Shown here in pieces: positions 12,435-26,212 of a DNA stretch of 64,000 nucleotides; positions within the stretch are counted from its first letter, which is position 1, and every line of letters begins with the position of its first letter. Source of the DNA: an uncultured Gemmatimonadales bacterium (GTDB taxonomy: Bacteria; Gemmatimonadota; Gemmatimonadetes; Gemmatimonadales; GWC2-71-9); contig CAVYSW010000003.1 in NCBI GenBank assembly GCA_963771275.1, positions 1,728,001-1,792,000 on the forward strand. Direction: 5' to 3'. The notes beneath the pieces are model-generated. The model was not told the DNA's origin. It saw only the letters and a list, made by a program, of their open reading frames with translations, and searched no databases. A program made the position numbers and the translations under genes.

Positions 12435-12508
12435 ATGCAAAGTGAAAAGTGAAAAGTGAAAAGCGCCGCCCCCGCCGCCCCTGCCGCTTCTGCCGCTTCT
12501 GCCGCTTC
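12435..12508 (+). repeat. Heptamer (GTGAAAA)n followed by nonamer (CTGCCGCTT)n tandem repeats
   Basis: aagtgaaaagtgaaaagtgaaaag then ctgccgcttctgccgcttctgccgcttc. Confidence 0.8.
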
Positions 12509-13245
12509 GTCACTCGCCGCACTCTCGGCCTCGGTGATCGCGTGCCGCGCCTGCCCCCGCCTCGTGGCGTGGCGCGAGCGCGTCGCGCGCGAGAAGCGGC
12601 GCGCCTTCCGCGCGTGGGATTACTGGGGCCGCCCCGTGCCGGGGTTCGGCGATCCGCGCGCCCGGATGCTGATCGTCGGGCTTGCGCCGGCGGCACACGG
12701 TGCCAACCGCACGGGCCGGATGTTCACCGGCGACCAGAGTGGCGATTGGCTGTACGCCGCCCTGCACCGGTTCGGCTTTGCCAGTCAGGCCGGCTCCGCG
12801 GCGCGCGATGACGGGCTCGCGCTGGCGGACTGCTATGTCACCGCCGCCGCACGATGCGCCCCGCCGGGCAACCGGCCGACCGGCGAGGAGCTGACGCGCT
12901 GTCGGGGGTACCTCGCGGGCGAGATCGCGCTGCTCCGCCGCGTGCGCCTCGTCGTGACCCTCGGCCGGGTGGCCCACGAGGCGTGGCTCCGGGCAGCGGG
13001 CTGGTGGCACGCGCTGGCGCCCGCCCAGCGACCGGCGTTCGCGCACGGCGCCCTGACGACGCTGCCTGACGGGATCCGCGCTGCTCAGCGCCTACCACCC
13101 CAGCCGGCAGAACACCAACACGGGCCGCCTCACCCGCGCCATGTGGCACGCGATCTTCCGACGGGCGCGGGGCGTGCTGGACGATGCCGGCCCGCGAGGG
13201 AGCGCGGACGGAGAGAGAGCGAGGGGGGCTGGGAGGGAGCGATGA
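12456..13245 (+). CDS. udgB: Family-5 uracil-DNA glycosylase, +1 frameshift near 13076-13080
   Basis: CRACPRL, GLAPAAHGANRTGRMFTGD; the missing motif LLSAYHPSRQNTNTGRLT is in the next frame from 13081 and ends TGA at 13243-13245; start approximate. Confidence 0.85.
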
Positions 13246-14231
13246 GGGCCATGCTGCTCGAGCGGCAACGCGCGCCGCTCCGGGAGGCCGCCATGGACGT
13301 GCCGCGGCCGGGGCCGGGCCAGGTGCTGCTCCGGGTCGGCGCCTGCGGGGTGTGCCGCACCGATCTCCACGTCGCCGACGGCGACCTGCCGGATCCCAAG
13401 CTGCCGCTCGTGCTGGGCCACGAGATCGTGGGGGTGGTGGCAGCGGCCGGGGCGGGCGCCGCGCGGTTTCCCGTCGGCGCGCGGGTCGGCGTGCCCTGGC
13501 TGGGCTGGACCTGCGGCGCGTGCCGCTACTGCCGCGCGGGGCGGGAGAACCTCTGCGACCGCGCGCGGTTCACCGGCTATCACCTGGACGGCGGCTACGC
13601 GGAGTACGCGCTGGCCGACGAGCGGTTCTGCGTGCCCCTGCCGGGAACGCTGTCGGACGCGCACGTGGCGCCGCTCTTGTGCGCGGGCCTGATCGGCTAC
13701 CGCGCGTACCGCGCGGCGGGTGAGGGCGAGCGGCTCGGCCTCTACGGCTTCGGCGCGGCGGCCCACATCATCGCCCAGGTGGCGATGCACGACGGGCGAA
13801 GGGTATACGCGTTCACCCGGGCGGGCGACCGCGCCGCCCAGGATCTGGCGCTCGGTCTGGGCGCGGCCTGGGCGGGCGGGTCGGACCAGACGCCGCCCGA
13901 ACCGCTGGACGCGGCGATCGTGTTCGCGCCGGTCGGCGGGCTCGTGCCGGTCGCCCTGCGCGCGGTCATCAAGGGGGGCACCGTCGTGTGCGCCGGGATC
14001 CACATGAGCGACATCCCGGCGTTTCCCTACGAGGTCCTCTGGGGCGAGCGCGTGCTCCGCTCCGTGGCCAACCTCACCCGGCGGGACGGCGAGGAGTTCT
14101 TCGCCGCCGTGGCGGCGGCGCCGGTGGAGACCACGGTGGAGCTGTACCCGCTGGCGGCCGCCGACCGCGCCCTGGACGACCTCCGGTCGGGGCGTCTGCG
14201 GGGAGCGGCGGTGCTCGCCGTGCGGGAATGA
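13242..14231 (+). CDS. Zinc-dependent alcohol dehydrogenase family protein
   Basis: CGVCRTDLH, GHEIVG, CGACRYC...ENLC, LLCAGLIGY; GGGAGGGAG RBS and ATGA overlap with the corrected udgB stop. Confidence 0.92.
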   Translation: MRAMLLERQRAPLREAAMDVPRPGPGQVLLRVGACGVCRTDLHVADGDLPDPKLPLVLGHEIVGVVAAAGAGAARFPVGARVGVPWLGWTCGACRYCRAGRENLCDRARFTGYHLDGGYAEYALADERFCVPLPGTLSDAHVAPLLCAGLIGYRAYRAAGEGERLGLYGFGAAAHIIAQVAMHDGRRVYAFTRAGDRAAQDLALGLGAAWAGGSDQTPPEPLDAAIVFAPVGGLVPVALRAVIKGGTVVCAGIHMSDIPAFPYEVLWGERVLRSVANLTRRDGEEFFAAVAAAPVETTVELYPLAAADRALDDLRSGRLRGAAVLAVRE

Positions 14232-14283: not shown

Positions 14284-15225
14284 ATGTCACTGCTCAATCT
14301 GGATGGCGTCGGCAAGCGGTTCGGAGCCGTCGTCGCCGTCGATGGCGTCGACGCGTCGGTGGACCGCGGGGAAGTCGTCGGCTTCCTCGGGCCGAACGGC
14401 GCCGGGAAATCCACCACCATGCGGATGATCACGCAGTTCCTCGAGCCGGATCGCGGGGCGATCCGGCTGGACGGCGTGCCGCTGGCCCAGGCCGGGCGCG
14501 AGGCCAAGCGCCGCATCGGGTACCTGCCGGAGAACAATCCGCTCTACACCGACATGCTCGTGGCGGACTACCTCGGCTTCATCGTGCGCCTGCGGGAGAT
14601 TCCCCAGCCGGCGCGCCGCGGCGCGATCGACCGCGCGGTGGCGCGCACGGGCGTGGAGAGCGTGTACTACCGCAGCATCGGCGAGCTGTCGAAAGGGTTC
14701 AAGCAGCGCGTCGGGCTCGCCCAGGCGATCGTGCACGAGCCGGACCTGCTGGTGCTCGACGAGCCCACCGAGGGCCTCGATCCCAACCAGCGGGTCGAGA
14801 TCCGTCGCCTGATCGGCGACCTCGGCCGCGAACGGACCGTGATCCTGTCCACGCACGTGCTCTCCGAGGCGCAGCACACCTGCTCCCGCCTGCTGATCAT
14901 CAACCGCGGGCGCCTCGTGGCCGACGGGCCCGTGGGACAGCTCGTGGCCCAGGCCCAGGGGCTGGCGCAGGTGGGTGTGGAGATCGCCGGCGCCGGCGTG
15001 GCCGATGCGATTCGCGCGCTCCCGGGCGTCACGCTGGTCGAGGAGCGGGGCGCGCTCGACGGGCGCGTGCGGCTCGGCGTCAGCGCGCAGGGGGAGACGG
15101 ACGTCCGGCCGGCGATCTTCCGGCTGGCCCACGAGCGCGGCTGGACGCTGTACGAGCTGCACGAGGAGGGTGGCAGCCTCGAGGCGCTGTTCCGGCAGCT
15201 GACCACCGAAGGGGGGCGCGCATGA
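14284..15225 (+). CDS. ABC transporter ATP-binding protein (GldA-like)
   Basis: GPNGAGKSTT, LSKGFKQRVGLAQA, LDEPTEGLDPNQ. Confidence 0.92.
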   Translation: MSLLNLDGVGKRFGAVVAVDGVDASVDRGEVVGFLGPNGAGKSTTMRMITQFLEPDRGAIRLDGVPLAQAGREAKRRIGYLPENNPLYTDMLVADYLGFIVRLREIPQPARRGAIDRAVARTGVESVYYRSIGELSKGFKQRVGLAQAIVHEPDLLVLDEPTEGLDPNQRVEIRRLIGDLGRERTVILSTHVLSEAQHTCSRLLIINRGRLVADGPVGQLVAQAQGLAQVGVEIAGAGVADAIRALPGVTLVEERGALDGRVRLGVSAQGETDVRPAIFRLAHERGWTLYELHEEGGSLEALFRQLTTEGGRA

Positions 15226-17474
15226 GTCGCGTCTGGACGGTGGGCCGCCGCGAGCTCACGGCGCTGTTCGACGCGCCGACGGGTTATATCCTGCTGATCG
15301 TCTTCCTCGCGGTCAACAACTTCCTGTTCTTCCGGCAGGCGTTCCTCATCGGCGTGGCGTCGCTCCGGCCAATGCTCGACCTGCTGCCCTGGATCCTGCT
15401 GTTCCTCGTGCCGGCGGTCACGATGCGCTCGCTCGCCGACGAGGTCAGGAGCGGCACGATCGAGGTGGTGCTGGCGCAGCCGATCACGGAGCTCGAGCTC
15501 GTGCTGGGCAAGTACCTCGGGGTCCTGCTGTTCCTGTGGTGCGGGCTGGCGCTCACGCTCGGGCTGCCGCTGGGGTTCGCGCTGGGGGCCCACCTGCCGA
15601 TCGGGGTGATCGCGGCGCAGTACGTCGGCGCGCTGCTGCTCGTGGCCGGGCTCACGGCGGTGGGCCTGTGGACCTCGAGCCTCACGCGCAACCAGATCAC
15701 CGCGTTCATCGTGGGCGTGGGGGTCATGTTCGTGCTGGTGCTGATCGGCCTCGATCCGCTGATCGTGGGGCTGCCACCCGTGCTCGGCGCCCTCGCCGCG
15801 CGGCTCGGCGTGCTGTCGCACTTCGAGAGCATCGGCCGGGGCGTGATCGACCTGCGGGACGTGGTGTACTTCGGCTCGCTCGCGGCCCTGTTCCTGGTGC
15901 TGAGCTACGCGGCGGTGCTGGCGCGCAAGCTGCCGGCCGGGGCGCCCGCCGCCCGCCGCCTCCAGGCGGGGACCGCGGCGCTCGCGGCGGTCGTGGTCGT
16001 CGTCAACCTGCTCGGCGGCTACATCGGCGGCCGGCTCGACCTCACGCCGGGACGGGCCTACACCCTCTCGCCCGCGACGCGCGCGCTGGTGCGGAACGCG
16101 GGCGACATCGTGACGCTCGAGCTGTTCGCGTCGCGCGAGCTGCCGCCCGAGATCTCGCTGCTGAAGCGCGACGTCGACGACATGCTGCGCGACCTGCGGG
16201 CGGCCGGCCACGGCAACGTGCGGATCATCGAGCGCGACCCCGCCGAGGACCAGCAGGCCAAGGACGCGGCCCAGGCGGCGGGCATCCCGCCGATCCAGTT
16301 CAACGTGATCGGGCAGTCGCAGCTCCAGATCCGCCAGGGTTACATGGGCCTCGCAATCCGCTACGCGAATTCGCAGGAGGCGATCCCGGTGATCCAGCGG
16401 ACCGACGATCTGGAGTACCGGATCGCGTCCGCCATCCGGTCGATGACCCGCACGGGCAAGCCGGTCGTCGGGTTGGTGATCGATCCCTCGGCCGCGGCGA
16501 TGGGCCAGCGCACCTACCAGGGGCTGCGGGGCGAGCTGGCGAAGACCTACGACGTGCGCAGCGTGTCGCTCGCCCAGGACTCCGCGCCGACGCGTGATGT
16601 CCGGGCCCTGCTGCTCGTGGGGTCGCCGGATTCGCTGCCCGCCGGCGAGGCGGAGCGGCTCAGGGCGTATCTCGCGGGCGGGGGCGCGGCCCTGGTGATG
16701 GCCGGCGGCATGGCGATCGATCCGCAGCAGCCGTACTTCGCGACGCCGCGCCCCGTGACGTGGGACGCCGTGCTCCAGGACTACGGCGTGACGATCCGGC
16801 CGGATATGGTGTACGACCTGCTCGCCAACGAGAGCGTCGCGCTGCCGACCCAGTACGGCCGGCTGCTCACGCAGTACCCGCTGTGGGTTCGGGCCGCCGG
16901 GACCGGCCGGTCGGTGGTGAACGAGGAGATCGCCTCGCTGTTCCTGCCGTGGACCAGCTCGATCGACACGACGGGCGCGCGGGCGGGGACGGTGACGCCG
17001 CTGTTCGTGTCGAGCCGCGCCGGCGGCATCTCCGCCAGCGAGACGCTGCTCGATCCCCAGCGGCACTTCGCCACCGATAGCCTCGCGTCCCGCCTGCTCG
17101 CCGTGCTCGTCAATCCGCTCAGCCCGCTGGTGTCGGGCGACACCGCGGGACCGCGCGGCCGGCTCGTCGTCGTGGGCAACGAGGAGTTCGCCTCCGACCG
17201 GCAGGCGCGCTCCGTGCCGGAGAACCTCACGTTCGTGCTGAACGCGGTGGACTGGCTGGCGCAGGACGAGGGGCTGATCGCGATCCGGTCGAAGGACCGG
17301 CGCCCGCCGCCGCTCGCCTTGAGCGAGGGCACGCGCGGCGCCGTGAAATACGCCAACGTGGTCGGGATGCCGCTGCTCGTGGGCCTCGCGGGTCTCGCGC
17401 GGCTCGTGGGCCGGCGGAGAACCATGCGACGGACGTACACACCGGGCACGGCCGCCGGAGGAGGGGCCGCATGA
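15222..17474 (+). CDS. Fused ABC-2 permease (GldF-like) and GldG-like auxiliary domain
   Basis: TMRSLADEVRSGTIEVVL, HFESIGRGVIDLRDVVYF, RLDLT...YTLS, NAVDWL...LIAIRSK. Confidence 0.88.
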   Translation: MSRVWTVGRRELTALFDAPTGYILLIVFLAVNNFLFFRQAFLIGVASLRPMLDLLPWILLFLVPAVTMRSLADEVRSGTIEVVLAQPITELELVLGKYLGVLLFLWCGLALTLGLPLGFALGAHLPIGVIAAQYVGALLLVAGLTAVGLWTSSLTRNQITAFIVGVGVMFVLVLIGLDPLIVGLPPVLGALAARLGVLSHFESIGRGVIDLRDVVYFGSLAALFLVLSYAAVLARKLPAGAPAARRLQAGTAALAAVVVVVNLLGGYIGGRLDLTPGRAYTLSPATRALVRNAGDIVTLELFASRELPPEISLLKRDVDDMLRDLRAAGHGNVRIIERDPAEDQQAKDAAQAAGIPPIQFNVIGQSQLQIRQGYMGLAIRYANSQEAIPVIQRTDDLEYRIASAIRSMTRTGKPVVGLVIDPSAAAMGQRTYQGLRGELAKTYDVRSVSLAQDSAPTRDVRALLLVGSPDSLPAGEAERLRAYLAGGGAALVMAGGMAIDPQQPYFATPRPVTWDAVLQDYGVTIRPDMVYDLLANESVALPTQYGRLLTQYPLWVRAAGTGRSVVNEEIASLFLPWTSSIDTTGARAGTVTPLFVSSRAGGISASETLLDPQRHFATDSLASRLLAVLVNPLSPLVSGDTAGPRGRLVVVGNEEFASDRQARSVPENLTFVLNAVDWLAQDEGLIAIRSKDRRPPPLALSEGTRGAVKYANVVGMPLLVGLAGLARLVGRRRTMRRTYTPGTAAGGGAA

Positions 17475-18376
17475 GTCCCGCCGCACTCAAGCGCGCGCTG
17501 CTGGCGCTGGCGGTGCTGCTGGTTGCCTGGGGAGGGCTCGCGCTGTTCCGCCGCTCGATGAGCGACGCGCCGCTGGCGCTCGCGCTCCCCAAGCTGAGCG
17601 CGGCGGACATCGACCGGATCACGATCACGGCGCCCGGCGACACGATCGACCTCAGGAGCACCGCGAGCGGCTGGCAGGCCAACGGGTACGCGGCGGCGGC
17701 CGGCTCGGTGGACGACCTGATCGCCGCGCTGTCGGACACGGGCAACGCGAGCGAGCTGGTCGCGCGGAGCGCCGCCTCGCACGCCCGCATGGGGGTGGAC
17801 ACGGCGGGCGGCCGGCGGGTGCGGTTCTTCAAGGGAGATCGCGCGCTCGCCGACGTGATCGTCGGGAGCCAGGGTCGCTCGTTCCAGACCGCCTACGTCC
17901 GGTTGGCCGGGGACGACGACGTCTACCTGCTGCACGGGCGGCTGCCGAGCCTCGCGGCGCGCGACCTCGACGCATGGCGCGACCGGCGGATCGCGGCGGT
18001 CCCCGCCGACAGCGTGCGATCGGTGGAGGTGGCGCGCGGCGGGCGGCGCTGGGTGCTGTCGCGGGCGGATGGTGCCTGGCGGCTCGGCGCGGCGGCGGCG
18101 GATTCCGGAGCGGTCGCCCGGCTGCTCCAGGGCATGGGCGACGTGAGCGCGCTGGGCTTCGCCACCGTCGCGCAGGCGGAGTCGCTGGACTTCGCGCATC
18201 CCAAGCGCGCGCTGACGGTGTTGGGCGGCTCGAGCGACACGCTGCTCCGCCTGCTGTTCGATTCGACGGCGGGCGGCTCGTGGGTGCGTCGCGCGACGGG
18301 CGGCCCGGTGTACCGGCTGGATTTCTGGCGGCTCGATCAGCTGACGCCGAGCGACAGCACGCTGCGGAAGAAATAG
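17471..18376 (+). CDS. DUF4340-like protein
   Basis: N-terminal TM and two repeated domains (WRDRRI); usual third gene of Gld-type operons. Confidence 0.75.
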   Translation: MSPAALKRALLALAVLLVAWGGLALFRRSMSDAPLALALPKLSAADIDRITITAPGDTIDLRSTASGWQANGYAAAAGSVDDLIAALSDTGNASELVARSAASHARMGVDTAGGRRVRFFKGDRALADVIVGSQGRSFQTAYVRLAGDDDVYLLHGRLPSLAARDLDAWRDRRIAAVPADSVRSVEVARGGRRWVLSRADGAWRLGAAAADSGAVARLLQGMGDVSALGFATVAQAESLDFAHPKRALTVLGGSSDTLLRLLFDSTAGGSWVRRATGGPVYRLDFWRLDQLTPSDSTLRKK

Positions 18377-18688: not shown

Positions 18689-20368
18689 GTGCGGTTTGAG
18701 GTCAACGACAAGTGCGTCAGCTGCATGGCATGCGTGCGGGTCTGTCCGTCGAACGCCATTGCGGTTGAGGACACGGACGTCTGGATTGTCGACGAGGCCT
18801 GCGTGCGCGCGGGGCTGTGCGTCGAGGCGTGCCCGCATGACGCGATCGATGTCGTCGGCGACCGGGCGCGGGTGCGCGAGCTGCTCGCGACCGGCTCCAC
18901 GGTGCTGGTGTTGGCGGGCGAGGCGGCGGTGCACTTCCATCCGCACGCGCTGGAGCAGGTGGTGAACGCCTGCTTCCGGGTCGGGTTCATCGGGGTGCAT
19001 CATGGGGTGGTGGGAGAGGAGCTGGTGGCCGCGGAGTACCTGCGGCTATGCAGCGACACGCGGTGGCAGACGATGATCCGGTCCACGTGTCCGATCCTGG
19101 TGGAGAAGATCCGGAGCGAGTATCCCGAGCTGGTGCGGTATCTCGCGCCGGTGGTGACGCCGCTCAAGGCCGAGGTGGACTACCTGCGCGACGTGTACGG
19201 GGAGGGCGGGGCCATCGTGTACGCCGGTGTGTGCCTGGCGGACGCGACCGGGAACGTCGAGGCGGCGCTGACGTTCCGCGATCTGGAGCTGTTGCTCGAG
19301 GAGTCCGGGGTGAGCGTGGGGGCCGAGCCCACGTACCATCGCCGCATTCCGGGCGTCCGGCGGCGGCACGTGAGCACGGCGGGCGGGATGCCGCTCGAGA
19401 TGCTGCTGCGGGAGCATCAGGCGAGCCGGCGGTTCCGCAAGTTCCGCGGGCTCGGGGCGCTGGATCTGATTCACCACGCGGTGGTGACGGACGGGATCGC
19501 GCTCGGCTTCGTGGACATTCTGCCGTGCGAGGGGTGTCTGGACCACCCGCTGCTCGGCCCGCGGGACGAGCTGTTCTGGCGGCGCCGGGTGGCGGCGCAG
19601 AGCGAGCCGCCGCGGAGCGAGTTGCCGGTGATCGACCCGGAGGTCATAGTCAACGTCGCCACATCGTTTACATTCCATGGCGACGGGACGCACCCTCCGG
19701 ACGATGAGATCGAGGCGGTCGTCCGGCAGGTGGGGACCGCCCCGAACGGCGCGCCGTGGGATTGCGGGGCGTGTGGGTTCGGGACCTGCCGGGAGTTCGC
19801 GGCGCAGCTGCTGCGGGGTCGCGCGACGCTGCGGCAGTGCCCGCCGTATCAGGAGCGGGTGGCGGCGGAGGCGCAGCGCGAGGCCGCGGTGGACGCGCTC
19901 ACGGGGCTGGTGACGTACCGCGTGCTGCGGGACCGGTTGGCCAACGAGGCGGCGCGCAGCAGCCGGAGCGGCGAGCGGTTCGCGGTGCTGTTCATGGATC
20001 TCGACGGGTTCAAGCAGGTGAACGACACGTTCGGGCACCGGGCGGGGAGCGAGGTGCTGGCGGCGATCGGGCAGGTGGTGCAGAAGGCGGTGCGGAGCAC
20101 GGATGTGGCGGGGCGGTACGGCGGTGACGAGTTCGTGGTGCTGCTGGTGCGGACGGACGTGTCGGGCGCGCTGCGGGTGGGGGAGGTGATTCGGGAGCGG
20201 GTGGAGGCGGTGGGGCGCGCGCTGGGGTATGCGCCGGGGACGATCAGCGCGTCGATCGGGGTGGCGGAGTGCGATCCCGAGGCGGCCAACGGCACGGACG
20301 TGCTGGAGCGGGCGGACCGGGCGCTGTATCGGGCGAAGGCGCTGGGCGGCAATCGCATCGAGGTCTGA
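18689..20368 (+). CDS. Diguanylate cyclase with ferredoxin, [FeFe]-hydrogenase-like and Fe-S sensor domains
   Basis: CVSCMACVRVCP and CVRAGLCVEACP; RSTCP, AGVCLA, DILPCEGC; DCGACGFGTC...QCP; DLDGFKQVNDTFGH and RSTDVAGRYGGDEF. Confidence 0.88.
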   Translation: MRFEVNDKCVSCMACVRVCPSNAIAVEDTDVWIVDEACVRAGLCVEACPHDAIDVVGDRARVRELLATGSTVLVLAGEAAVHFHPHALEQVVNACFRVGFIGVHHGVVGEELVAAEYLRLCSDTRWQTMIRSTCPILVEKIRSEYPELVRYLAPVVTPLKAEVDYLRDVYGEGGAIVYAGVCLADATGNVEAALTFRDLELLLEESGVSVGAEPTYHRRIPGVRRRHVSTAGGMPLEMLLREHQASRRFRKFRGLGALDLIHHAVVTDGIALGFVDILPCEGCLDHPLLGPRDELFWRRRVAAQSEPPRSELPVIDPEVIVNVATSFTFHGDGTHPPDDEIEAVVRQVGTAPNGAPWDCGACGFGTCREFAAQLLRGRATLRQCPPYQERVAAEAQREAAVDALTGLVTYRVLRDRLANEAARSSRSGERFAVLFMDLDGFKQVNDTFGHRAGSEVLAAIGQVVQKAVRSTDVAGRYGGDEFVVLLVRTDVSGALRVGEVIRERVEAVGRALGYAPGTISASIGVAECDPEAANGTDVLERADRALYRAKALGGNRIEV

Positions 20369-20396
20369 GGTGGCGGCTTCGAGAGGGGAGCGGGCG

Positions 20397-21149
20397 TTGA
20401 CGGCGACAGATCCGAACCGGGGCATGGAGCGGCCGGGCGGGCCGGCGCGGGCGGGCACGACGGCGACGGCGGGAGTGCACCAGGCCGACCCGTGGGGCGT
20501 GAAGCGGGCGGAGAACCTGCTCACGAGCCTGCAGGGCGTGCTGTCGGCGCGGGTGGTGGTCTCGCCGATCGGCGAGGTCGAGGAGATCCACGTGCTGACG
20601 CAGGGGAGCACGCCGGCGAAGCAGGTGGTGCGCAACGTGGAGAGCGCGCTGCTGGCGCATCTCGGCCTCAAAGTGGATCATCGCAAGATCAGCGTGGCGC
20701 AGACGGCGGAGGTGCGGCCGATCGAGGCGCTGGACCAGGACGCGGTGCGCGAGATGGCGATGCGGCGCGGGGTGCTGTTCGGCCGGCTCGAGTTTCAGTC
20801 GACCGGCGGGGGCCAGCGGATCGGGCTCCACGTGACGCTGCGCGTGGGGGACGAGGAGGTGGCGGGGACGGCGGAGGCGGTGGACAACGCGCGGGCGCGG
20901 CTCAACGGGGCGGCGCGGGCGGCGGTGGCAGCGTTGGACAAGATCCTGACGCGCGGGATGATCGACGTGGAAGGGGTGCAGGTGGTGGAGGCGTTCGACC
21001 GGCGCTTCGTGATGGCCGGAATCCTCGTTGCGGAAAGCCGTGGAAGTAGTTTATTGACAGGCACTTGCGAGCTGGCAGACAGTCCTGAGCAGGCGTCGGT
21101 GCTGGCGGTGCTGGACGCCACGAACCGGTGGCTTGCATCACGGCGCTAG
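20397..21149 (+). CDS. Conserved hypothetical protein
   Basis: GAGAGGGGAG RBS before TTG; EEIHVL...KQVVRNVESALLA.LGL.VDHRKISVAQ and AVLDATNR conserved-looking blocks. Confidence 0.75.
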   Translation: MTATDPNRGMERPGGPARAGTTATAGVHQADPWGVKRAENLLTSLQGVLSARVVVSPIGEVEEIHVLTQGSTPAKQVVRNVESALLAHLGLKVDHRKISVAQTAEVRPIEALDQDAVREMAMRRGVLFGRLEFQSTGGGQRIGLHVTLRVGDEEVAGTAEAVDNARARLNGAARAAVAALDKILTRGMIDVEGVQVVEAFDRRFVMAGILVAESRGSSLLTGTCELADSPEQASVLAVLDATNRWLASRR

Positions 21150-21434
21150 CGTAGACCAAGTCCTATCATTACTTTGGTTCGCCCAAACCACAGGGCGGGC
21201 CGGCGCGGTCCAATCCCATGTCGCGGGTTTGGTTGTGTCGGCTTATTTGATCTGGTTTCTCACCAGTCTTCACGAGTACTTAAGGAGAGATCGAAGGGGC
21301 CCCCGGTCGCCGAGCTGCCAGTACGGAGCGAAGTTGATCGGGTAAGACGAGCGGAGCGTCAGGGTATGCCATAGCGGGGCATGCCACTTCTCATCGTGAT
21401 CCGTCTGAAACGGTCAGGGGGGAGGTGACGCTCA

Positions 21435-21515
21435 ATGCCAGGATTCGGTTGGCTCGCGTTCCTGCTGGGGATTTTTGCTCGAGCTTTCTCCGCGCAGGGA
21501 ACGATCATGTGGTAG
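21435..21515 (+). CDS. 26-aa hydrophobic peptide, putative signalling-peptide precursor
   Basis: GGGGGGAGGTGA Shine-Dalgarno, ATG 21435, MPGFGWLAFLLGIFARAFSAQGTIMW, TAG 21513-21515; below the ORF-track length cutoff. Confidence 0.7.
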   Translation: MPGFGWLAFLLGIFARAFSAQGTIMW

Positions 21516-21525
21516 TTCGTCAATC

Positions 21526-21545
21526 GGGGGCACCCCTCCCTTTTT
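21526..21545 (+). terminator. Weak hairpin plus U-tract between the peptide gene and HD-GYP gene
   Basis: GGGGG-CA-CCCCTCCC-TTTTT. Confidence 0.4.
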
Positions 21546-21555
21546 CGCGTTCAGG

Positions 21556-22878
21556 ATGCAGAGGCCACGGGCGATCCATGTCTATGTCGCCGCAGTCTTC
21601 ATTGCGGCGGCGGTCCTGATTGGGCGGGCTTCTTGGGTCGTCCCGGGGGAGCCGAGCCAATTCTGGAACGCAATGGCGGCGTTTCTAGTCTTGGCGGTGG
21701 TTTCGGAGTTGGCATTCCTCAAGCTCCCCATGGGTACGGCGACCTCATCCGTATCCTTCATTCCCTACCTAGCCGCGATTGCCTTGGTTGGTCCGGCGTG
21801 GGCGATGGCGTTGACGGGACTCGCCACGTTCTCGGCGGAGACATTTGTCCGGCGCAAGCCCCTGATCAAGATCATCCTCAACACATCGAAGGAGGTAGTG
21901 GGCGTTGGGCTGGCAGGCTTGTTGTACCTGCAGTTAGGAGGCACAGTCTCGCTAACGGGCCTCGTAGTGGCTCCCTTCGCCTTCGCCATTGCAGTCTGTG
22001 GTTACATGGTTGTGAACACTGGCGCGCCCGCAATCGCTATCGCGCTGAGTAGCGGAACCGCCCTAGGGGACTCGTGGAATCGACTGGTTGGGGGGTCGCT
22101 TCTTTTCGACTTCCTCGCGAGCCCTCTTGCGTTGCTGCTCGCGTTCTTGTACACGGAGGCACAGCTCGCCGGTGTGATCGTAGTGACGATCCCGCTGTTC
22201 CTGATCCGTCACGTCTATAGCGTCAACCTGCGGCTCGAGCAGAACAACCGTGACCTGCTTGAGCTGATGGTCAAGAACCTCGAAGCACGGGACCCGTACA
22301 CATCCGGTCACTCGGTGCGCGTGGCGCGGCTCGCGGACGTCCTGTCGCGCGCCCTCGGGCTGCCTGGCAAGCAGATCGCGCAGATCGGGACGGCAGCTCT
22401 CCTTCATGACGTGGGGAAGATCCACGAGGAGTACGGGGTCATCCTGCGAAAGCAGGGACGGCTCACCGCCGAAGAGATGGCTGTGATGCGGACACACCCG
22501 ATCAGGAGTTACGAACTTGTTCGCATCATTTCTGGGTTCAGAGGTGGCGTCGATCTTGTCGTGCGGCATCACCACGAGAACTATGATGGGTCTGGCTATC
22601 CGGATGGCTTAGCGGGGGAGGCAATCCCGATCGGGGCACGGATCATCATGGTTGCTGATACTGCCGATGCGATGACGACGGACCGCCCGTATCGGACAGC
22701 CCTAGGGTACAACGAGGTGCTAGCGGAACTTGAGCGGTATGCGGGTATGCAGTTCGACCCGCAGCTCGTGAAGCTTTTCGGGACCACGCCTGCTGTCAGG
22801 GCCCTAGTTGAGGCCACCAAGGTTGGCCAGGAATCGCCTCGGGAATTGCCCACCCATAGAGCTGTGCAGCTCGCCTGA
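21556..22878 (+). CDS. Multi-pass membrane HD-GYP phosphodiesterase
   Basis: About 7 hydrophobic helices then EARDPYTSGHS, LLHDVGK, HHENYDGSGYPDGL, DAMTTDRPYR. Confidence 0.92.
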   Translation: MQRPRAIHVYVAAVFIAAAVLIGRASWVVPGEPSQFWNAMAAFLVLAVVSELAFLKLPMGTATSSVSFIPYLAAIALVGPAWAMALTGLATFSAETFVRRKPLIKIILNTSKEVVGVGLAGLLYLQLGGTVSLTGLVVAPFAFAIAVCGYMVVNTGAPAIAIALSSGTALGDSWNRLVGGSLLFDFLASPLALLLAFLYTEAQLAGVIVVTIPLFLIRHVYSVNLRLEQNNRDLLELMVKNLEARDPYTSGHSVRVARLADVLSRALGLPGKQIAQIGTAALLHDVGKIHEEYGVILRKQGRLTAEEMAVMRTHPIRSYELVRIISGFRGGVDLVVRHHHENYDGSGYPDGLAGEAIPIGARIIMVADTADAMTTDRPYRTALGYNEVLAELERYAGMQFDPQLVKLFGTTPAVRALVEATKVGQESPRELPTHRAVQLA

Positions 22879-25800
22879 GATTCACGATCCCTCTCGCATC
22901 GGCCAGTTCAGCTTGGGGTGCGGTTCCCACGACGGCGAGATGCAGCAGGACTCCTGGCACAGTGGCCTGTAGAATCTCCTGAACAACGGCGATTCCGGCC
23001 TGCTCGTCACCCCGGACCATCCGCAACCACGCGTCGAGTCCTCGCACCTCAAGCTGGCCCGCGATTGGCAGACGCCCGAGTCGCTCCTCCCGCTGCTCTT
23101 GGATGGAGACGTAGGCATCCCAGCCTTGTGTCGCAGCGACATAGTGTCTCAGGAGTCGCTCGTGCCTTCCAGCTTCGCCGGTGGTCACGATCCGTTCGCC
23201 CACCGGAAGCACATGTTCTTCCACGAGTCCCCAGGCTAGTTCTGCTTCTTGTTCTGCGAGATGGTAGTCAGCACGAACCAGGAAGACGTCGAGGGCGTCC
23301 TGCCGAAATGTGGAGCGTGCAGCCCAGTGCTCTGCTAATCGCAACAGGTCGTCGGCCTGCTGGGCTTGGCCTGTGTCGAGACAGAACGACGCCGCTGCGG
23401 CGAATACTGTGGCCTTGGCTCTTGGACTCTGGTGGCGCCGGGCGGCGACGAGCGCGTTGGCAAACGAGCCGGCTGCCTGCAGGAACTTGCCGCGGTCCTG
23501 TTGGAGAACCGCGACGTTGCACCACAGAAGCGGCTTCGCTGCTCGCAACGGTTCAGGTGTTGTGCTGACGATCTGAGCGAACGTCGCCTCCGCATGGTCC
23601 AGGCGACCAGCTGAGGTGTGAGCCATACCCATGCCGTTCAACAGACGGTGAAGCAGGGACAGGTTCACAATATCCTCCCGCTTCGTCAATCCGATTCCTT
23701 CATCAAACACCGTTGCGGCCTCCTCAGGGTGTCCTGAAATCAACAGGCAGTAGCCAACGGTCAATGCGATCATCGCCTTGGAGTGTGGCTCGACAATTCT
23801 CGCCCTTACCTCCGCTATCACTTGCTCTATCTGTTGGAGGCGCCGCAAGTCGCCTGCCTCACTGGCCATCTCTGCAGCCACCTGGAGGGCCTCCGCGATC
23901 AGGAGCTCAGATCCGTCCCTGATGGCTGCAGCGAGAACGGAGTCGGCCATCTCCCTGACCTTGTGACTCGACTCCTCGCGGAGAGCAGCAAGTGATCGGA
24001 CCTGCAAGAGAGAGGCGTGGGTAGCCTCGCGGGGCGATACTTGCCGGAGGTCCTCCACCTTCTCCAATGTGGTCAGCGTCTCTCGATCTTTGCCCTGAGC
24101 TGACTGTGCCGAAGCGAGTGTGAGGATCGCGTCTACCCCACTCGCGTCTGGAGCTGTCGATAACAGATCCCCAAGAGCCTCCTCAGCTTCAGCAGGTGCC
24201 CCGGCGGCCACGGCGACCTTCGCCGCGACACGTATGAGGTTGCCTGCCTCTTCACCGTTCCCGGCTCTCAGAAAGTGGTATCCCTGTTCCAAGCGCTCCT
24301 TGAAATGGCTGGGCTTCAGCGGTTCGACGGGGCCACGTGCGAGAATCGTGTGATAGTACTTCTTCCTCTCGGGGCTGGTGGCGAAGTAGACAAAGGCCCG
24401 ATGTAGCTCACCCTTGAAACGTAGCGCTCCGTGATCGAGGCCGAGGATTCCTCGGTCCAGCAACACCAGTGCGTGTGGATCGAGTTCCCCGACCTCGATG
24501 CTCAGACAGCGGGATAGCTCAGCCGGCGTCAGAGATCTGCGTGCCGCCGCCAGGACTTGAAGTAGGTTCTGCGATGCCGGCAACAGCCCCCTGTATTGGT
24601 TCGCGAACGCCTGCCTCATCGAATCGGGCGGAGTCCAATCGGCTGGCAACTCGTGGGTTGTCGCACCGGCCGCCAACGAGTCTGCGGCGTACTGCTTCCA
24701 ATCCGCGACGAGCATCTCCGCGAAATGTGGGTTCCCCTCCGCGAGCTCGACAATGCGCGCGCGCACTCCGCCGGCCTGCACGTTGAGTGACGGTGCGAGA
24801 GTGGTGAGCAACGTGTGCATCTCTCCCGCGTCCAGCGGTCCGAGGCGCAACGTCCGGTGCCAGGCGAGCGGCTCGTCGCCCAGGGGGCCGGCCAGCAGCC
24901 CTCCCTCGAAGCTGCGCACGCGTGAGGTCGCGACGAGCAGCACCCCGTGGCCCTCGAGGCGACGGGCGAGCACGTGGAGCACGTCCCGCGTTGCCGGATC
25001 CATGAACTGCAAGTCGTCAAACACGATCGCGACCGGGCCACCGTCGGCGACTGCGTCGAGCATCTGGAGCACGCCCTCGGCCACACGCAGCCGCACGGAC
25101 TCGGCCGGTGCGGGTGGCGGCTCGGGGATCCCCGGATAGACCGTGCGCAGGCCGGGATGCACTCGGCTCACCTCCGCGAGCCACTTGGGATCCGTGCCGG
25201 CGGCCGCCGGATCCCGCGCCAAGGCCGTCACGACATCCGAGATAGCCGCGAACGGGATGCCTTCGCCGATCTCCTGGCAGCTCACCAGGAACACCGGCTG
25301 AGCACGCGCCGCGAGCGTGGCGGCGAACCGGCGGATCAGCGAGCTCTTCCCGATGCCCCCGGGGCCCTCGACGAGACAGGCCTGAAAGCCACCCGTCCGG
25401 GCGCAATCCCACTCGGCCTCGAGCTGGGCCAGTTCGTGCTCCCTCCCCACGAAAACCGCCGGCCGCAGTGCCGTCGCGCCGGATGCCATCCGTGGCGGGA
25501 TGACCTCCACCGGCGGGTGCGCTCCCGCCTCCAACCGGCGCAGGAGCCGCTCGGTGTCCTTCTGCGGCATGCAGCCGAGGGCTTCTCGAACGCCCGCGAT
25601 GTGCTCGCGCAACAGCCGAATGGCGGCGATCACATCCCCGCGCAGCAACTCACGCTCCGCCAAAGCGTGCACCGCGAGGTCCGAGAGCGGGTCGATCTCA
25701 TAGAGCACGTGTGCGCACAGGTGCACCCGGTCGAGCTCGCCGTTCCGGCGGTGGCGAGCCATGTTGTCCCGCAGCGCCTGGTCGGCGAGACGCAGACAAC

Positions 25801-26212
25801 GGGCACGAGCCCGCTCCACCCAGTGCGCGAATTCAGCACCCGCCCATTCGTCGAGCTGCGCGAGCGGGTGTGCCACATCGAGCCGCTCAGGCTCGTCCCC
25901 CAACAGGTCCAGATCGGTGGCCAGCGCCACCGACAGCCGCACCCCGCTTCCCACCCTGGTGACGGCACGCGGACCCAGCAGGCCGCGAATCGCGCTCACC
26001 GCCTGTTCCAACGAGTGTCGCGCGCGCCTGATCGGGACGTGCTCCCACAGCATCTCCGCCAGGAAATCCCGACCGACCGGCTGATCACGGCCCTCGAGTG
26101 AGAGGTACACCAGGAGGCTCAGCTGCTTCTTTGCGCGCAGCCGCCGTGGTGTGCCCTCCGGGTCCAGGACCTCGGGCACCCCGAACAGCCTGAGTTCAAA
26201 GTCGTCTCGCAT
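22796..26212 (-). CDS. BTAD/SARP - STAND ATPase - TPR regulator (AfsR/MalT-like architecture)
   Basis: ELRLFG...LLVYL...RDFLAEMLW N-terminus; FVGREHE, GPGGIGKS, FDDLQFMD, GNPHF; long helical-repeat C-terminus. Confidence 0.88.
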   Translation of the reverse strand: MRDDFELRLFGVPEVLDPEGTPRRLRAKKQLSLLVYLSLEGRDQPVGRDFLAEMLWEHVPIRRARHSLEQAVSAIRGLLGPRAVTRVGSGVRLSVALATDLDLLGDEPERLDVAHPLAQLDEWAGAEFAHWVERARARCLRLADQALRDNMARHRRNGELDRVHLCAHVLYEIDPLSDLAVHALAERELLRGDVIAAIRLLREHIAGVREALGCMPQKDTERLLRRLEAGAHPPVEVIPPRMASGATALRPAVFVGREHELAQLEAEWDCARTGGFQACLVEGPGGIGKSSLIRRFAATLAARAQPVFLVSCQEIGEGIPFAAISDVVTALARDPAAAGTDPKWLAEVSRVHPGLRTVYPGIPEPPPAPAESVRLRVAEGVLQMLDAVADGGPVAIVFDDLQFMDPATRDVLHVLARRLEGHGVLLVATSRVRSFEGGLLAGPLGDEPLAWHRTLRLGPLDAGEMHTLLTTLAPSLNVQAGGVRARIVELAEGNPHFAEMLVADWKQYAADSLAAGATTHELPADWTPPDSMRQAFANQYRGLLPASQNLLQVLAAARRSLTPAELSRCLSIEVGELDPHALVLLDRGILGLDHGALRFKGELHRAFVYFATSPERKKYYHTILARGPVEPLKPSHFKERLEQGYHFLRAGNGEEAGNLIRVAAKVAVAAGAPAEAEEALGDLLSTAPDASGVDAILTLASAQSAQGKDRETLTTLEKVEDLRQVSPREATHASLLQVRSLAALREESSHKVREMADSVLAAAIRDGSELLIAEALQVAAEMASEAGDLRRLQQIEQVIAEVRARIVEPHSKAMIALTVGYCLLISGHPEEAATVFDEGIGLTKREDIVNLSLLHRLLNGMGMAHTSAGRLDHAEATFAQIVSTTPEPLRAAKPLLWCNVAVLQQDRGKFLQAAGSFANALVAARRHQSPRAKATVFAAAASFCLDTGQAQQADDLLRLAEHWAARSTFRQDALDVFLVRADYHLAEQEAELAWGLVEEHVLPVGERIVTTGEAGRHERLLRHYVAATQGWDAYVSIQEQREERLGRLPIAGQLEVRGLDAWLRMVRGDEQAGIAVVQEILQATVPGVLLHLAVVGTAPQAELADARGIVNLRRAAQLYGWAIPEAIPGQPWWPQLGP

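Follow-up and report, generated by a model that had tools for sequence, protein, structure and literature searches.

A 64,000-nucleotide (nt) stretch of contig CAVYSW010000003.1 (positions 1,728,001 to 1,792,000; assembly GCA_963771275.1) from an uncultured Gemmatimonadales bacterium, referred to here as the window, contains a 26-codon open reading frame (ORF), MPGFGWLAFLLGIFARAFSAQGTIMW, that is a genuine, conserved, and unannotated gene tied to a MASE9 HD-GYP phosphodiesterase of cyclic di-GMP (c-di-GMP). The mini-ORF lies on the plus strand at 21435-21515, with its ATG at 21435 and a TAG stop codon at 21513-21515. Its ribosome site is GGGGGGAGGTGA at 21417-21428, in which the GGAGG core ends 8 nt before the ATG, and in the window 40 nt separate its stop codon from the ATG of the HD-GYP gene at 21556. 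The mini-ORF is embedded in a folded mRNA leader of ~245 nt (21296-21541). With moderate confidence, we propose that translation of the mini-ORF, gated by this leader, would open a long-range RNA helix, called P0 here, and feed the start of the HD-GYP gene, and that the peptide would act at the membrane with the MASE9 domain.

The original prediction for this DNA, made from the sequence alone, had placed an ORF with a strong Shine-Dalgarno (SD) sequence ahead of a membrane HD-GYP protein, and both elements were borne out. The downstream gene (21556-22878, plus strand) encodes a 440-residue protein that matches MASE9 (PF20972, 37.9 bits with a cut-off of 24.3) and HD_5 (PF13487, 121.6 bits) and carries the HD and GYP motifs LLHDVGK and GSGYPDG. 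By these two family matches it is a member of the MASE9-HD-GYP proteins, which include T. maritima TM1467 and S. venezuelae HdgA. Two residues, N109 and D185, show no variation across the membrane part of our protein alignment (A2). In the accessible part of a preprint on this domain, charged residues in the membrane core were argued to mean that MASE9 binds a ligand within the membrane (Galperin and Chou, bioRxiv 10.1101/2021.11.05.467447). The same part of that preprint (10.1101/2021.11.05.467447) does not mention an upstream mini-ORF, a leader RNA, or the neighboring gene X described below for MASE9-HD-GYP proteins. The 440-residue form starting at 21556 is on record; the exact sequence of the mini-ORF peptide is absent among ~15 billion recorded proteins. 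By exact lookup, the peptides of relatives are on record in 2 of 10 cases, where they are unnamed or called "hypothetical protein", and searches of Pfam, NCBIfam, and Atlas placed the peptide in no family.

Conservation of the mini-ORF and its peptide

Searching the HD-GYP protein against 41 related genomes returned 28 matches at E<=1e-40, and the best orthologs were merely 40-52% identical to the window protein. A hydrophobic ORF of 17-31 codons was present upstream of the HD-GYP gene in all 20 ortholog loci with usable upstream DNA. It ended 22-68 nt before the HD-GYP start, and Trp was the last or next-to-last residue in 18 of the 20 peptides. A scan of this kind had been suggested as a check by the original prediction, and a pooled set of 36 distinct MASE9 loci, each having 200 nt or more of upstream DNA, came out as anticipated: 32 had an SD-led ORF of 14-45 amino acids with a grand average of hydropathy (GRAVY) of at least 0.7, and 27 of the 36 carried W in the last two residues. 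The peptides from these 32 loci had GRAVY values of 0.7-1.7. By comparison, the reverse complements of the same upstream regions yielded such an ORF at 1 of 36 loci and the interiors of the HD-GYP genes at none, in neither case with a terminal W; dinucleotide shuffles gave 52 of 1800 and, with W, 0 of 1800. The 36 loci are kin and not independent trials, and two of them, L011 and L065, come from unpublished genomes. A nucleotide pattern, GAGCGGAGCN{5,30}TAGN{20,50}GGTGA, was also run over 401 genomes; it was too loose, its backward control matching many genomes, and it was used only to harvest loci by eye.

The open frame, length, and hydropathy of the mini-ORF are retained among relatives while the nucleotides diverge. 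In a 17-row peptide alignment (A4), Trp is the sole invariant column. It is preceded by (A/G)(E/D/N)G-x-x, and ahead of this break lies a hydrophobic helix with one polar residue (R/K/N/H); the C-terminal (A/G)(E/D/N)G-x-x-W is the best-kept portion. Many peptides have a second Trp ~19-20 residues ahead of the C-terminal one, a spacing that we take to be the length of a membrane-spanning helix. Pooled over 31 equal-length pairs, the ratio of nonsynonymous to synonymous differences (pN/pS) was 0.55 in frame and 0.96 in the +1 frame; the pairs were picked at a peptide identity of at least 50%, which biases pN low, and the frame control alone offsets this. As judged from these comparisons of sequence, the peptide is under protein-level constraint.

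A leader RNA that encloses the mini-ORF

In aligned upstream DNA, the leader nucleotides 5' of the mini-ORF are better conserved than the ORF itself. From 5' to 3', the leader consists of AGCGG/GAGCG repeats, GAGCGGAGCGUC, a hairpin, CCACUUCC, a variable hairpin, and AAGGGAGGUGACGCUC-AUG. The repeated AGCGG/GAGCG words (…GGAGCGAAG…GAGCGGAGCGUC) occupy 21323-21360 on the plus strand and form nearly invariant columns in alignments A1 and A3. The word AGCGGAG followed by UAGCG[GA] occurred in 25 of 28 Gemmatimonadota leaders and in 4 of 9 readable Actinomycetota leaders. Reverse complements had none, and shuffles gave 9 of 2800 for the Gemmatimonadota and 0 of 900 for the Actinomycetota.

The ribosome site of the mini-ORF and the spacer before its AUG are paired in a three-way junction (21354-21433, plus strand) that covaries across 31 leaders. 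The stem P1 joins 21354-21360 to 21427-21433, so that GAGCGUC stands opposite its exact complement, GACGCUC, in the spacer from SD to AUG. Within the junction, the hairpin P2 pairs 21363-21370 with 21378-21385 around the loop AUAGCGG. All eight of its pairs change on both sides among relatives, and while the stem varies, the loop stays constant as (A/G)UAGCG(A/G). An anti-SD segment, ACUUC(U)C at 21386-21392, pairs with GGGAGGU of the SD at 21420-21426, and this helix encloses the variable hairpin P3 (21393-21419). RNAalifold on raw MAFFT columns gave no structure; the helices were therefore defined by hand and then counted. Over the 31 leaders, 83.7% of the cells in the junction were paired, as compared with 33-49% when the partners were slid, and 14 of 22 pairs showed changes on both sides. 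Where the SD itself alternates between A and G, the anti-SD matches it with U or C (UA in 9 leaders, CG in 7).

Of 150 genomes sampled from the phylum, 78 (among them G096, which is unpublished) contain a match to a covariance model of the leader (R1), and in 75 of the 78 it is the only one. At least 57 of the 78 have the leader 250-850 nt ahead of a PF20972 match that shares its contig and strand, and four further R1-matching genomes were confirmed through the HD-GYP ortholog search. Thus, the leader precedes the MASE9-HD-GYP gene almost exclusively. A cmscan of 20800-21800 on both strands found no Rfam 15 match at E<=1, including the c-di-GMP-I and c-di-GMP-II riboswitches.

Two protein readers of the repeated words were considered. 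CsrA, as a reader of GGA-containing repeats, was dropped since PF02599 was not found in this genome (96.7% complete). A TRAP-like array of (G/U)AG triplets in a 5-nt register is enriched in many leaders, but its chains are only 2-3 long, and we treat it as a lead only; the window has 2 such triplets in register, a number that 35 of 200 shuffles reach.

The two start sites differ in how well they would recruit ribosomes. Duplex energies between a generic anti-SD word and the 18 nt ahead of each start had a median of -14.8 kcal/mol at the mini-ORF, where 31 of 31 loci were at or below -6, and of -4.6 kcal/mol at the HD-GYP gene, where 9 of 31 were. In the window the latter value is +0.7 kcal/mol. 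The HD-GYP start is thus mostly without its own SD. A masked ribosome site at the mini-ORF and a weak one at the HD-GYP gene suggest that the ORF also acts in cis.

The helix P0 joins the sequence just past the mini-ORF stop codon to a segment ~200 nt upstream, in Gemmatimonadota and in Actinomycetota. Its 5' strand, GGGGCCCCCGGUCGCCGAGC at 21296-21315, pairs with 21516-21536 in the minimum free energy (MFE) fold of 21292-21545. This fold holds P0, P1, P2, and the SD:anti-SD helix at once, has a z-score of -3.63, and was not equaled in stability by any of 200 shuffles. Compensatory changes preserve P0 among relatives: AAAACCCCCG goes with CGGGGGUUUU in L015 and L017, AGCGGCCCUG with CAGGGCCGCU in L018, and GGCGGCCUCG with CGAGGUCGCC in L016. 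P0 is a perfect 17-bp helix in L165, and long helices are found in L149, L173, and L025. Across 28 loci, cognate P0 strands had a mean duplex energy of -38.3 kcal/mol as compared with -32.0 for non-cognate strands, and 0 of 5000 permutations were as low. Counted column by column on the MAFFT alignment, P0 does only weakly better than slid partners (78% paired, 52-72% when slid), which we attribute to runs of G and C that pair in several registers and to shifting bulges; the case for P0 rests on the cognate versus non-cognate duplex tests.

The original prediction had seen a hairpin with a U-tract behind the mini-ORF. A terminator-like site is indeed present (stem 21526-21538, followed by a T run, within 21516-21545 on the plus strand), but the stem falls inside the 3' strand of P0 (21516-21536). 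The G4-N3-C4 element 3' of the mini-ORF is conserved; its T run is not, and where there is one, it is often base-paired to a stretch of A in the 5' strand, as in L015, L017, and L173. The "terminator hairpin" is more likely the 3' strand of the long-range helix. This bears on the possibility that the mini-ORF is a tryptophan-sensing attenuator, in which ribosomes would stall at the UGG beside the stop codon when charged tRNA-Trp is low, shift the balance of P0 and the hairpin, and so alter HD-GYP expression, with the protein of gene X perhaps receiving the same amino-acid input. The UGG is invariant at the last or next-to-last codon, directly ahead of the 3' strand of P0, the window does have the hairpin with its T run, and X resembles a Leu/Ile-binding regulatory domain. 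We nevertheless regard attenuation as very improbable. There is a single Trp codon at this place, where a classical trp leader has tandem codons, the T run is not conserved and is often paired with the 5' strand where it occurs, the cluster has no tryptophan metabolism genes, and the conserved hydrophobic helix would be left unexplained.

The 3' strand of P0 begins 0-1 nt past the stop codon in 22 of 28 loci, so a terminating ribosome would have to open P0. Together with the HD-GYP start lacking an SD and the ribosome site locked in the junction, this geometry fits an ORF that acts purely in cis, where translation alone matters, by unmasking or coupling or by ribosome arrest in which the last residues would sense something within the exit tunnel, and the released peptide is idle. 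The concentration of conservation at the C-terminal (A/G)(E/D/N)G-x-x-W is also what arrest peptides such as TnaC, SpeFL, and the Erm leaders would show. We consider a solely cis-acting ORF unlikely. The hydropathy and length of the peptide, its break, and its Trp are kept over order-level divergence and in a second phylum, which is beyond what simple coupling requires, and the pN/pS of 0.55 compared with 0.96 in the frame control speaks for selection on the product. A role in cis and a role of the product are compatible, and both fit the evidence.

Metatranscriptome contigs from three studies cover the leader and the ORF. One of 189 nt is identical to 21341-21529, and three more span 21333-21434, 21359-21434, and 21292-21434. 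Several are identical or nearly so up to 21434 and then continue into a different ATG-led sequence, which we interpret as coming from relatives that share the leader and have a mini-ORF of their own. DNA may occur in RNA libraries, and the contigs give neither ends nor levels. The contigs do not cover the HD-GYP coding region, which is uninformative given that these are contigs and given how the runs were located, and provides no evidence for attenuation or processing. The sharp boundary at 21434, the stability of the whole domain (z -3.63), and the higher conservation of leader nucleotides than of the ORF would all suit a purely non-coding element, a riboswitch-like or small-RNA-like domain closed by P0 in which the open frame is a by-product. 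Such an element is highly improbable in our estimate: an SD of consensus strength with proper spacing stands ahead of the frame at 31 of 31 loci, frame, length, and hydropathy survive nucleotide divergence, control ORFs arise in just 0-1 of 36 loci, and the pN/pS is frame-specific.

The gene module and its relatives in other phyla

The conserved order of the module is (Fe-S diguanylate cyclase) - X - leader with mini-ORF - MASE9-HD-GYP phosphodiesterase. The cyclase gene (18689-20368, plus strand) encodes 559 residues whose N-terminal part is of a 4Fe-4S and Fe-hydrogenase-like type; the domain matches are Fe_hyd_lg_C, FeS, Fer4, and GGDEF (138.5 bits) in Pfam and GGDEF in NCBIfam. At least 13 genomes of family f1, one of them (G020) unpublished, carry it beside the module in the same orientation, and a search at E<=1e-60 did not detect it in the 16 genomes of families f2 and f3. 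The cyclase that the original prediction set against the phosphodiesterase is thus a conserved neighbor of the module within f1 only.

Gene X (20424-21149, plus strand; 241 residues, with the start taken at M66 of a longer ORF, 20229-21149) precedes the module in the same orientation at 31 of the 33 loci for which 900 nt or more of upstream DNA is available, and in 21 it is adjacent. It has no Pfam or NCBIfam match, and its Atlas neighbors are Gemmatimonadota hypotheticals alone. In an AlphaFold2 (AF2) model with a mean confidence (pLDDT) of 85.9, residues 19-95 adopt a common ferredoxin-like fold and residues 115-238 have a fold like that of the regulatory domain of citramalate and isopropylmalate synthases, in which two beta-beta-beta-alpha units bind Ile or Leu at a dimer interface. 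Residues 115-238 aligned with 3f6g_B over 110 of 115 residues (Z 9.2, root-mean-square deviation 3.3, 11% identity), and Foldseek matched LeuA (E 1.5e-6). On this fold resemblance only, X is LeuA-regulatory-like and looks like a cytosolic ligand-binding protein, not a peptidase or an exporter.

A weak paralog of the C-terminal half of X lies at G000:C9:354859-355218 (E 5e-5). In ~10 loci a receiver-like gene is found between X and the module. At eight loci whose peptides are of the MLxxLAALFTAxAKLFF type (L150, L069, L050, L157, L040, L169, L012, and L178), ~900 nt separate X from the leader, and this stretch encodes an apparent receiver-domain C-terminus.

Outside the Gemmatimonadota, PF20972 was found in 48 of 201 sampled Actinomycetota genomes at E<=1e-6. 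We fetched 30 loci, 27 of which had at least 220 nt upstream; an SD-led hydrophobic ORF was present at 10 of these 27 and at 0 of 27 on the reverse complement, and 8 of the 10 peptides ended in W or in W plus one residue. A profile of X matched at 7 of the 30 loci, in 2 with the same orientation and in 5 divergently. The Gemmatimonadota leader model barely matches there, reaching E 0.04-0.06 at the right place in two loci. For the long-range helix, cognate strands were again favored, at -39.9 compared with -28.4 kcal/mol for non-cognate strands (2 of 5000 permutations), and clean helices of unrelated sequence join the stop codon to the 5' flank in L201, L202, and L190. In one Bacillota metagenome-assembled genome (MAG; L078), X, the mini-ORF, and the HD-GYP gene occur in this order, with the word AGCGGAGCG ahead of the ORF. 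Of four loci outside the Gemmatimonadota with full-length MASE9 and sufficient upstream DNA (L075, L078, L097, and L121), two had a hydrophobic mini-ORF. Within the Gemmatimonadota, locus L071 places the module in a MAG of the genus Gemmatimonas.

The Actinomycetota peptides start with MKK or MKR, continue with a hydrophobic core and AGA, SGA, or GGA, and close with a tail of 4-6 residues that mostly ends in W. They resemble mini signal peptides with an A-x-A site, and a tail of this kind may be exported. Such a layout would favor a pheromone, as the original prediction supposed: the hydrophobic part would serve as an export or insertion signal, the cleaved Trp tail would accumulate outside, and MASE9 would sense it so that cell density tunes c-di-GMP breakdown. 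The small residue (A/G) ahead of (E/D/N)G-x-x-W in Gemmatimonadota points the same way. What remains of that prediction is a conserved gene linked to MASE9-HD-GYP proteins and a constrained peptide; its export half fares worse. The cleavage-like sites ARA and FSA are present in the window peptide, but A-x-A is not conserved there among relatives, and just 1 of the 17 Gemmatimonadota peptides in A4 has K or R among its first four residues, so that a charged n-region is lacking. The precursors have 17-31 residues, and no Sec-exported pheromone precursor is known to us to be so short. The conserved cluster contains no protease, exporter, or importer, and X, as noted, looks cytosolic. A secreted signal of this kind is, in our view, unlikely.

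Several other observations concern the surroundings of the module. A convergent gene on the minus strand (22796-26212) encodes a 1138-residue STAND-type protein with AAA_16 and TPR domains, and, as listed, its ORF reaches 83 nt into the 3' end of the HD-GYP gene. At locus L025 (G026:C7:151301-152158) the HD-GYP ortholog match carries one in-frame TGA; the upstream leader and mini-ORF look intact. Just upstream of the cyclase, 14284-18376 (plus strand) encodes an ABC ATPase, a DUF4340 protein, and a fusion of an ABC-2 permease with a GldG-like auxiliary domain. Before these, a 591-residue ORF (12456-14231, plus strand) combines uracil-DNA-glycosylase-superfamily and ADH_N domains and may be a fusion or two genes merged by the ORF listing.

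A candidate circuit of RNA, peptide, and enzyme

In the reading that we favor, leader-gated translation with a peptide that acts at the membrane, the junction would by default keep the mini-ORF silent. Some input would open it, the candidates being a small molecule or protein X acting on the AGCGG words. A ribosome reaching the mini-ORF stop codon would have to unzip P0, and it, or its 30S subunit, would then start at the SD-less HD-GYP AUG 22-100 nt downstream, so that peptide and enzyme are made together. The peptide, with its hydrophobic helix, its small/acidic-Gly break, and its tail of 3-5 residues containing the Trp, would insert in the membrane and act on MASE9 as a subunit or an in-membrane ligand. 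Co-folding of the A4 peptides with residues 1-235 of A2, which make up the MASE9 part, gave scores of 0.23 and 0.21, with a mark of 0.32, in runs without controls, and so speaks neither for nor against such an interaction.

Besides the selection bias in pN/pS and the weak column count for P0, several findings weigh against this reading. Four of the 36 MASE9 loci have no such ORF, nor do 17 of the 27 Actinomycetota loci by the criteria used. The terminal Trp is missing in L040 (I), L149 (F), L157 (F), and L074 (II), and the peptides of L024 and L028 carry W 3-6 residues from the end. Trp has one codon, so its invariance cannot separate a constraint on the peptide from one on RNA or decoding. 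The UGG is paired in most MFE folds; its partners vary, with the far-upstream strand chosen in 6 of 24, and these folds revealed no constant RNA partner for the codon. Conserved pairing of the HD-GYP AUG was likewise not seen in single-sequence MFE folds. Lastly, only 1 of 6 genomes of the same genus (71-89% complete) has an HD-GYP ortholog at E<=1e-40.

Known systems share parts of the proposed arrangement. Small proteins such as MgrB and SafA, which act with PhoQ, and PmrR, KdpF, and AcrZ modulate membrane proteins. Like them, the mini-ORF product is shorter than 50 residues, would form a single hydrophobic helix, and is encoded with or beside its presumed membrane partner. It has no sequence relation to them, however; its presumed target is a MASE9 c-di-GMP phosphodiesterase, and its gene sits in a structured leader, its translation probably being coupled to that of the target.

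For the cis-acting part, the erm and cat leaders and the long-range pairing between the MS2 coat and replicase regions are established cases of unmasking or coupling. In Salmonella, mgtQ ahead of mgtB is reported to be an instance of unmasking or coupling that depends on an upstream ORF (PMC8092293). Here too a short ORF precedes a gene with a poor or structured initiation region, and its translation would open a helix. Unlike in those cases, P0 is long-range and closes the whole leader including the ORF, the ribosome site of the mini-ORF is itself masked by a conserved junction, and the peptide is conserved.

The pheromone precursors Phr, PapR, SHP/XIP, and AgrD are, like the mini-ORF product, short and encoded beside a receptor, which in the present case is only presumed, and the sequence again suggests a hydrophobic body with a short C-terminal tail. 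The signal-peptide-like layout of the Actinomycetota relatives adds to this likeness. In contrast to those systems, there is no RRNPP or AgrC-type receptor and no export or processing gene in the conserved cluster, the precursor is much shorter, and the output would be a second messenger.

As for the leader itself, TRAP and HutP bind sites made of (G/U)AG repeats, and c-di-GMP-I and c-di-GMP-II riboswitches precede GGDEF, EAL, and HD-GYP genes. The present leader resembles these in having conserved unpaired words (AGCGG and the UAGCGG loop) amid covarying stems, an SD-masking helix, and a c-di-GMP gene downstream. It differs in lacking any Rfam match, in the small number of its repeats, and in the absence of a detectable CsrA from this genome.

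A bolder extension, which we put forward as doubtful, is that the leader is a new sensor RNA, closed by P0, that would decide on the synthesis of a Trp-tailed micropeptide in at least three phyla (Gemmatimonadota, Actinomycetota, and, through one MAG, Bacillota), with the micropeptide serving as the in-membrane ligand or subunit of MASE9. This RNA carries the invariant AGCGG words and the UAGCGG loop. Its input might be a riboswitch ligand, with the gene context suiting c-di-GMP or a nucleotide akin to it, or it might be protein X in complex with an amino-acid-like ligand. RNA, peptide, and enzyme would then make up a self-contained circuit in which c-di-GMP breakdown is set against the neighboring Fe-S cyclase. 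The P0 stem of ~26 bp might in addition be a site for RNase III, whose cleavage would free the leader and ORF as a stable RNA of dual function.

Among sources other than subscription journals and preprint supplements, we found no description of the module. The case illustrates that an apparent terminator can prove to be one strand of a long-range helix and that gene callers overlook a whole conserved family of 17-31 codons, 9 of 11 exact sequences being absent from ~15 billion predicted proteins. The leader would be a new structured RNA for which the gene context suggests candidate ligands. We know of no input for MASE9 or for most of the membrane-embedded sensor domains of c-di-GMP enzymes; if the proposed circuit is correct, the co-made micropeptide would be a concrete candidate input for MASE9.

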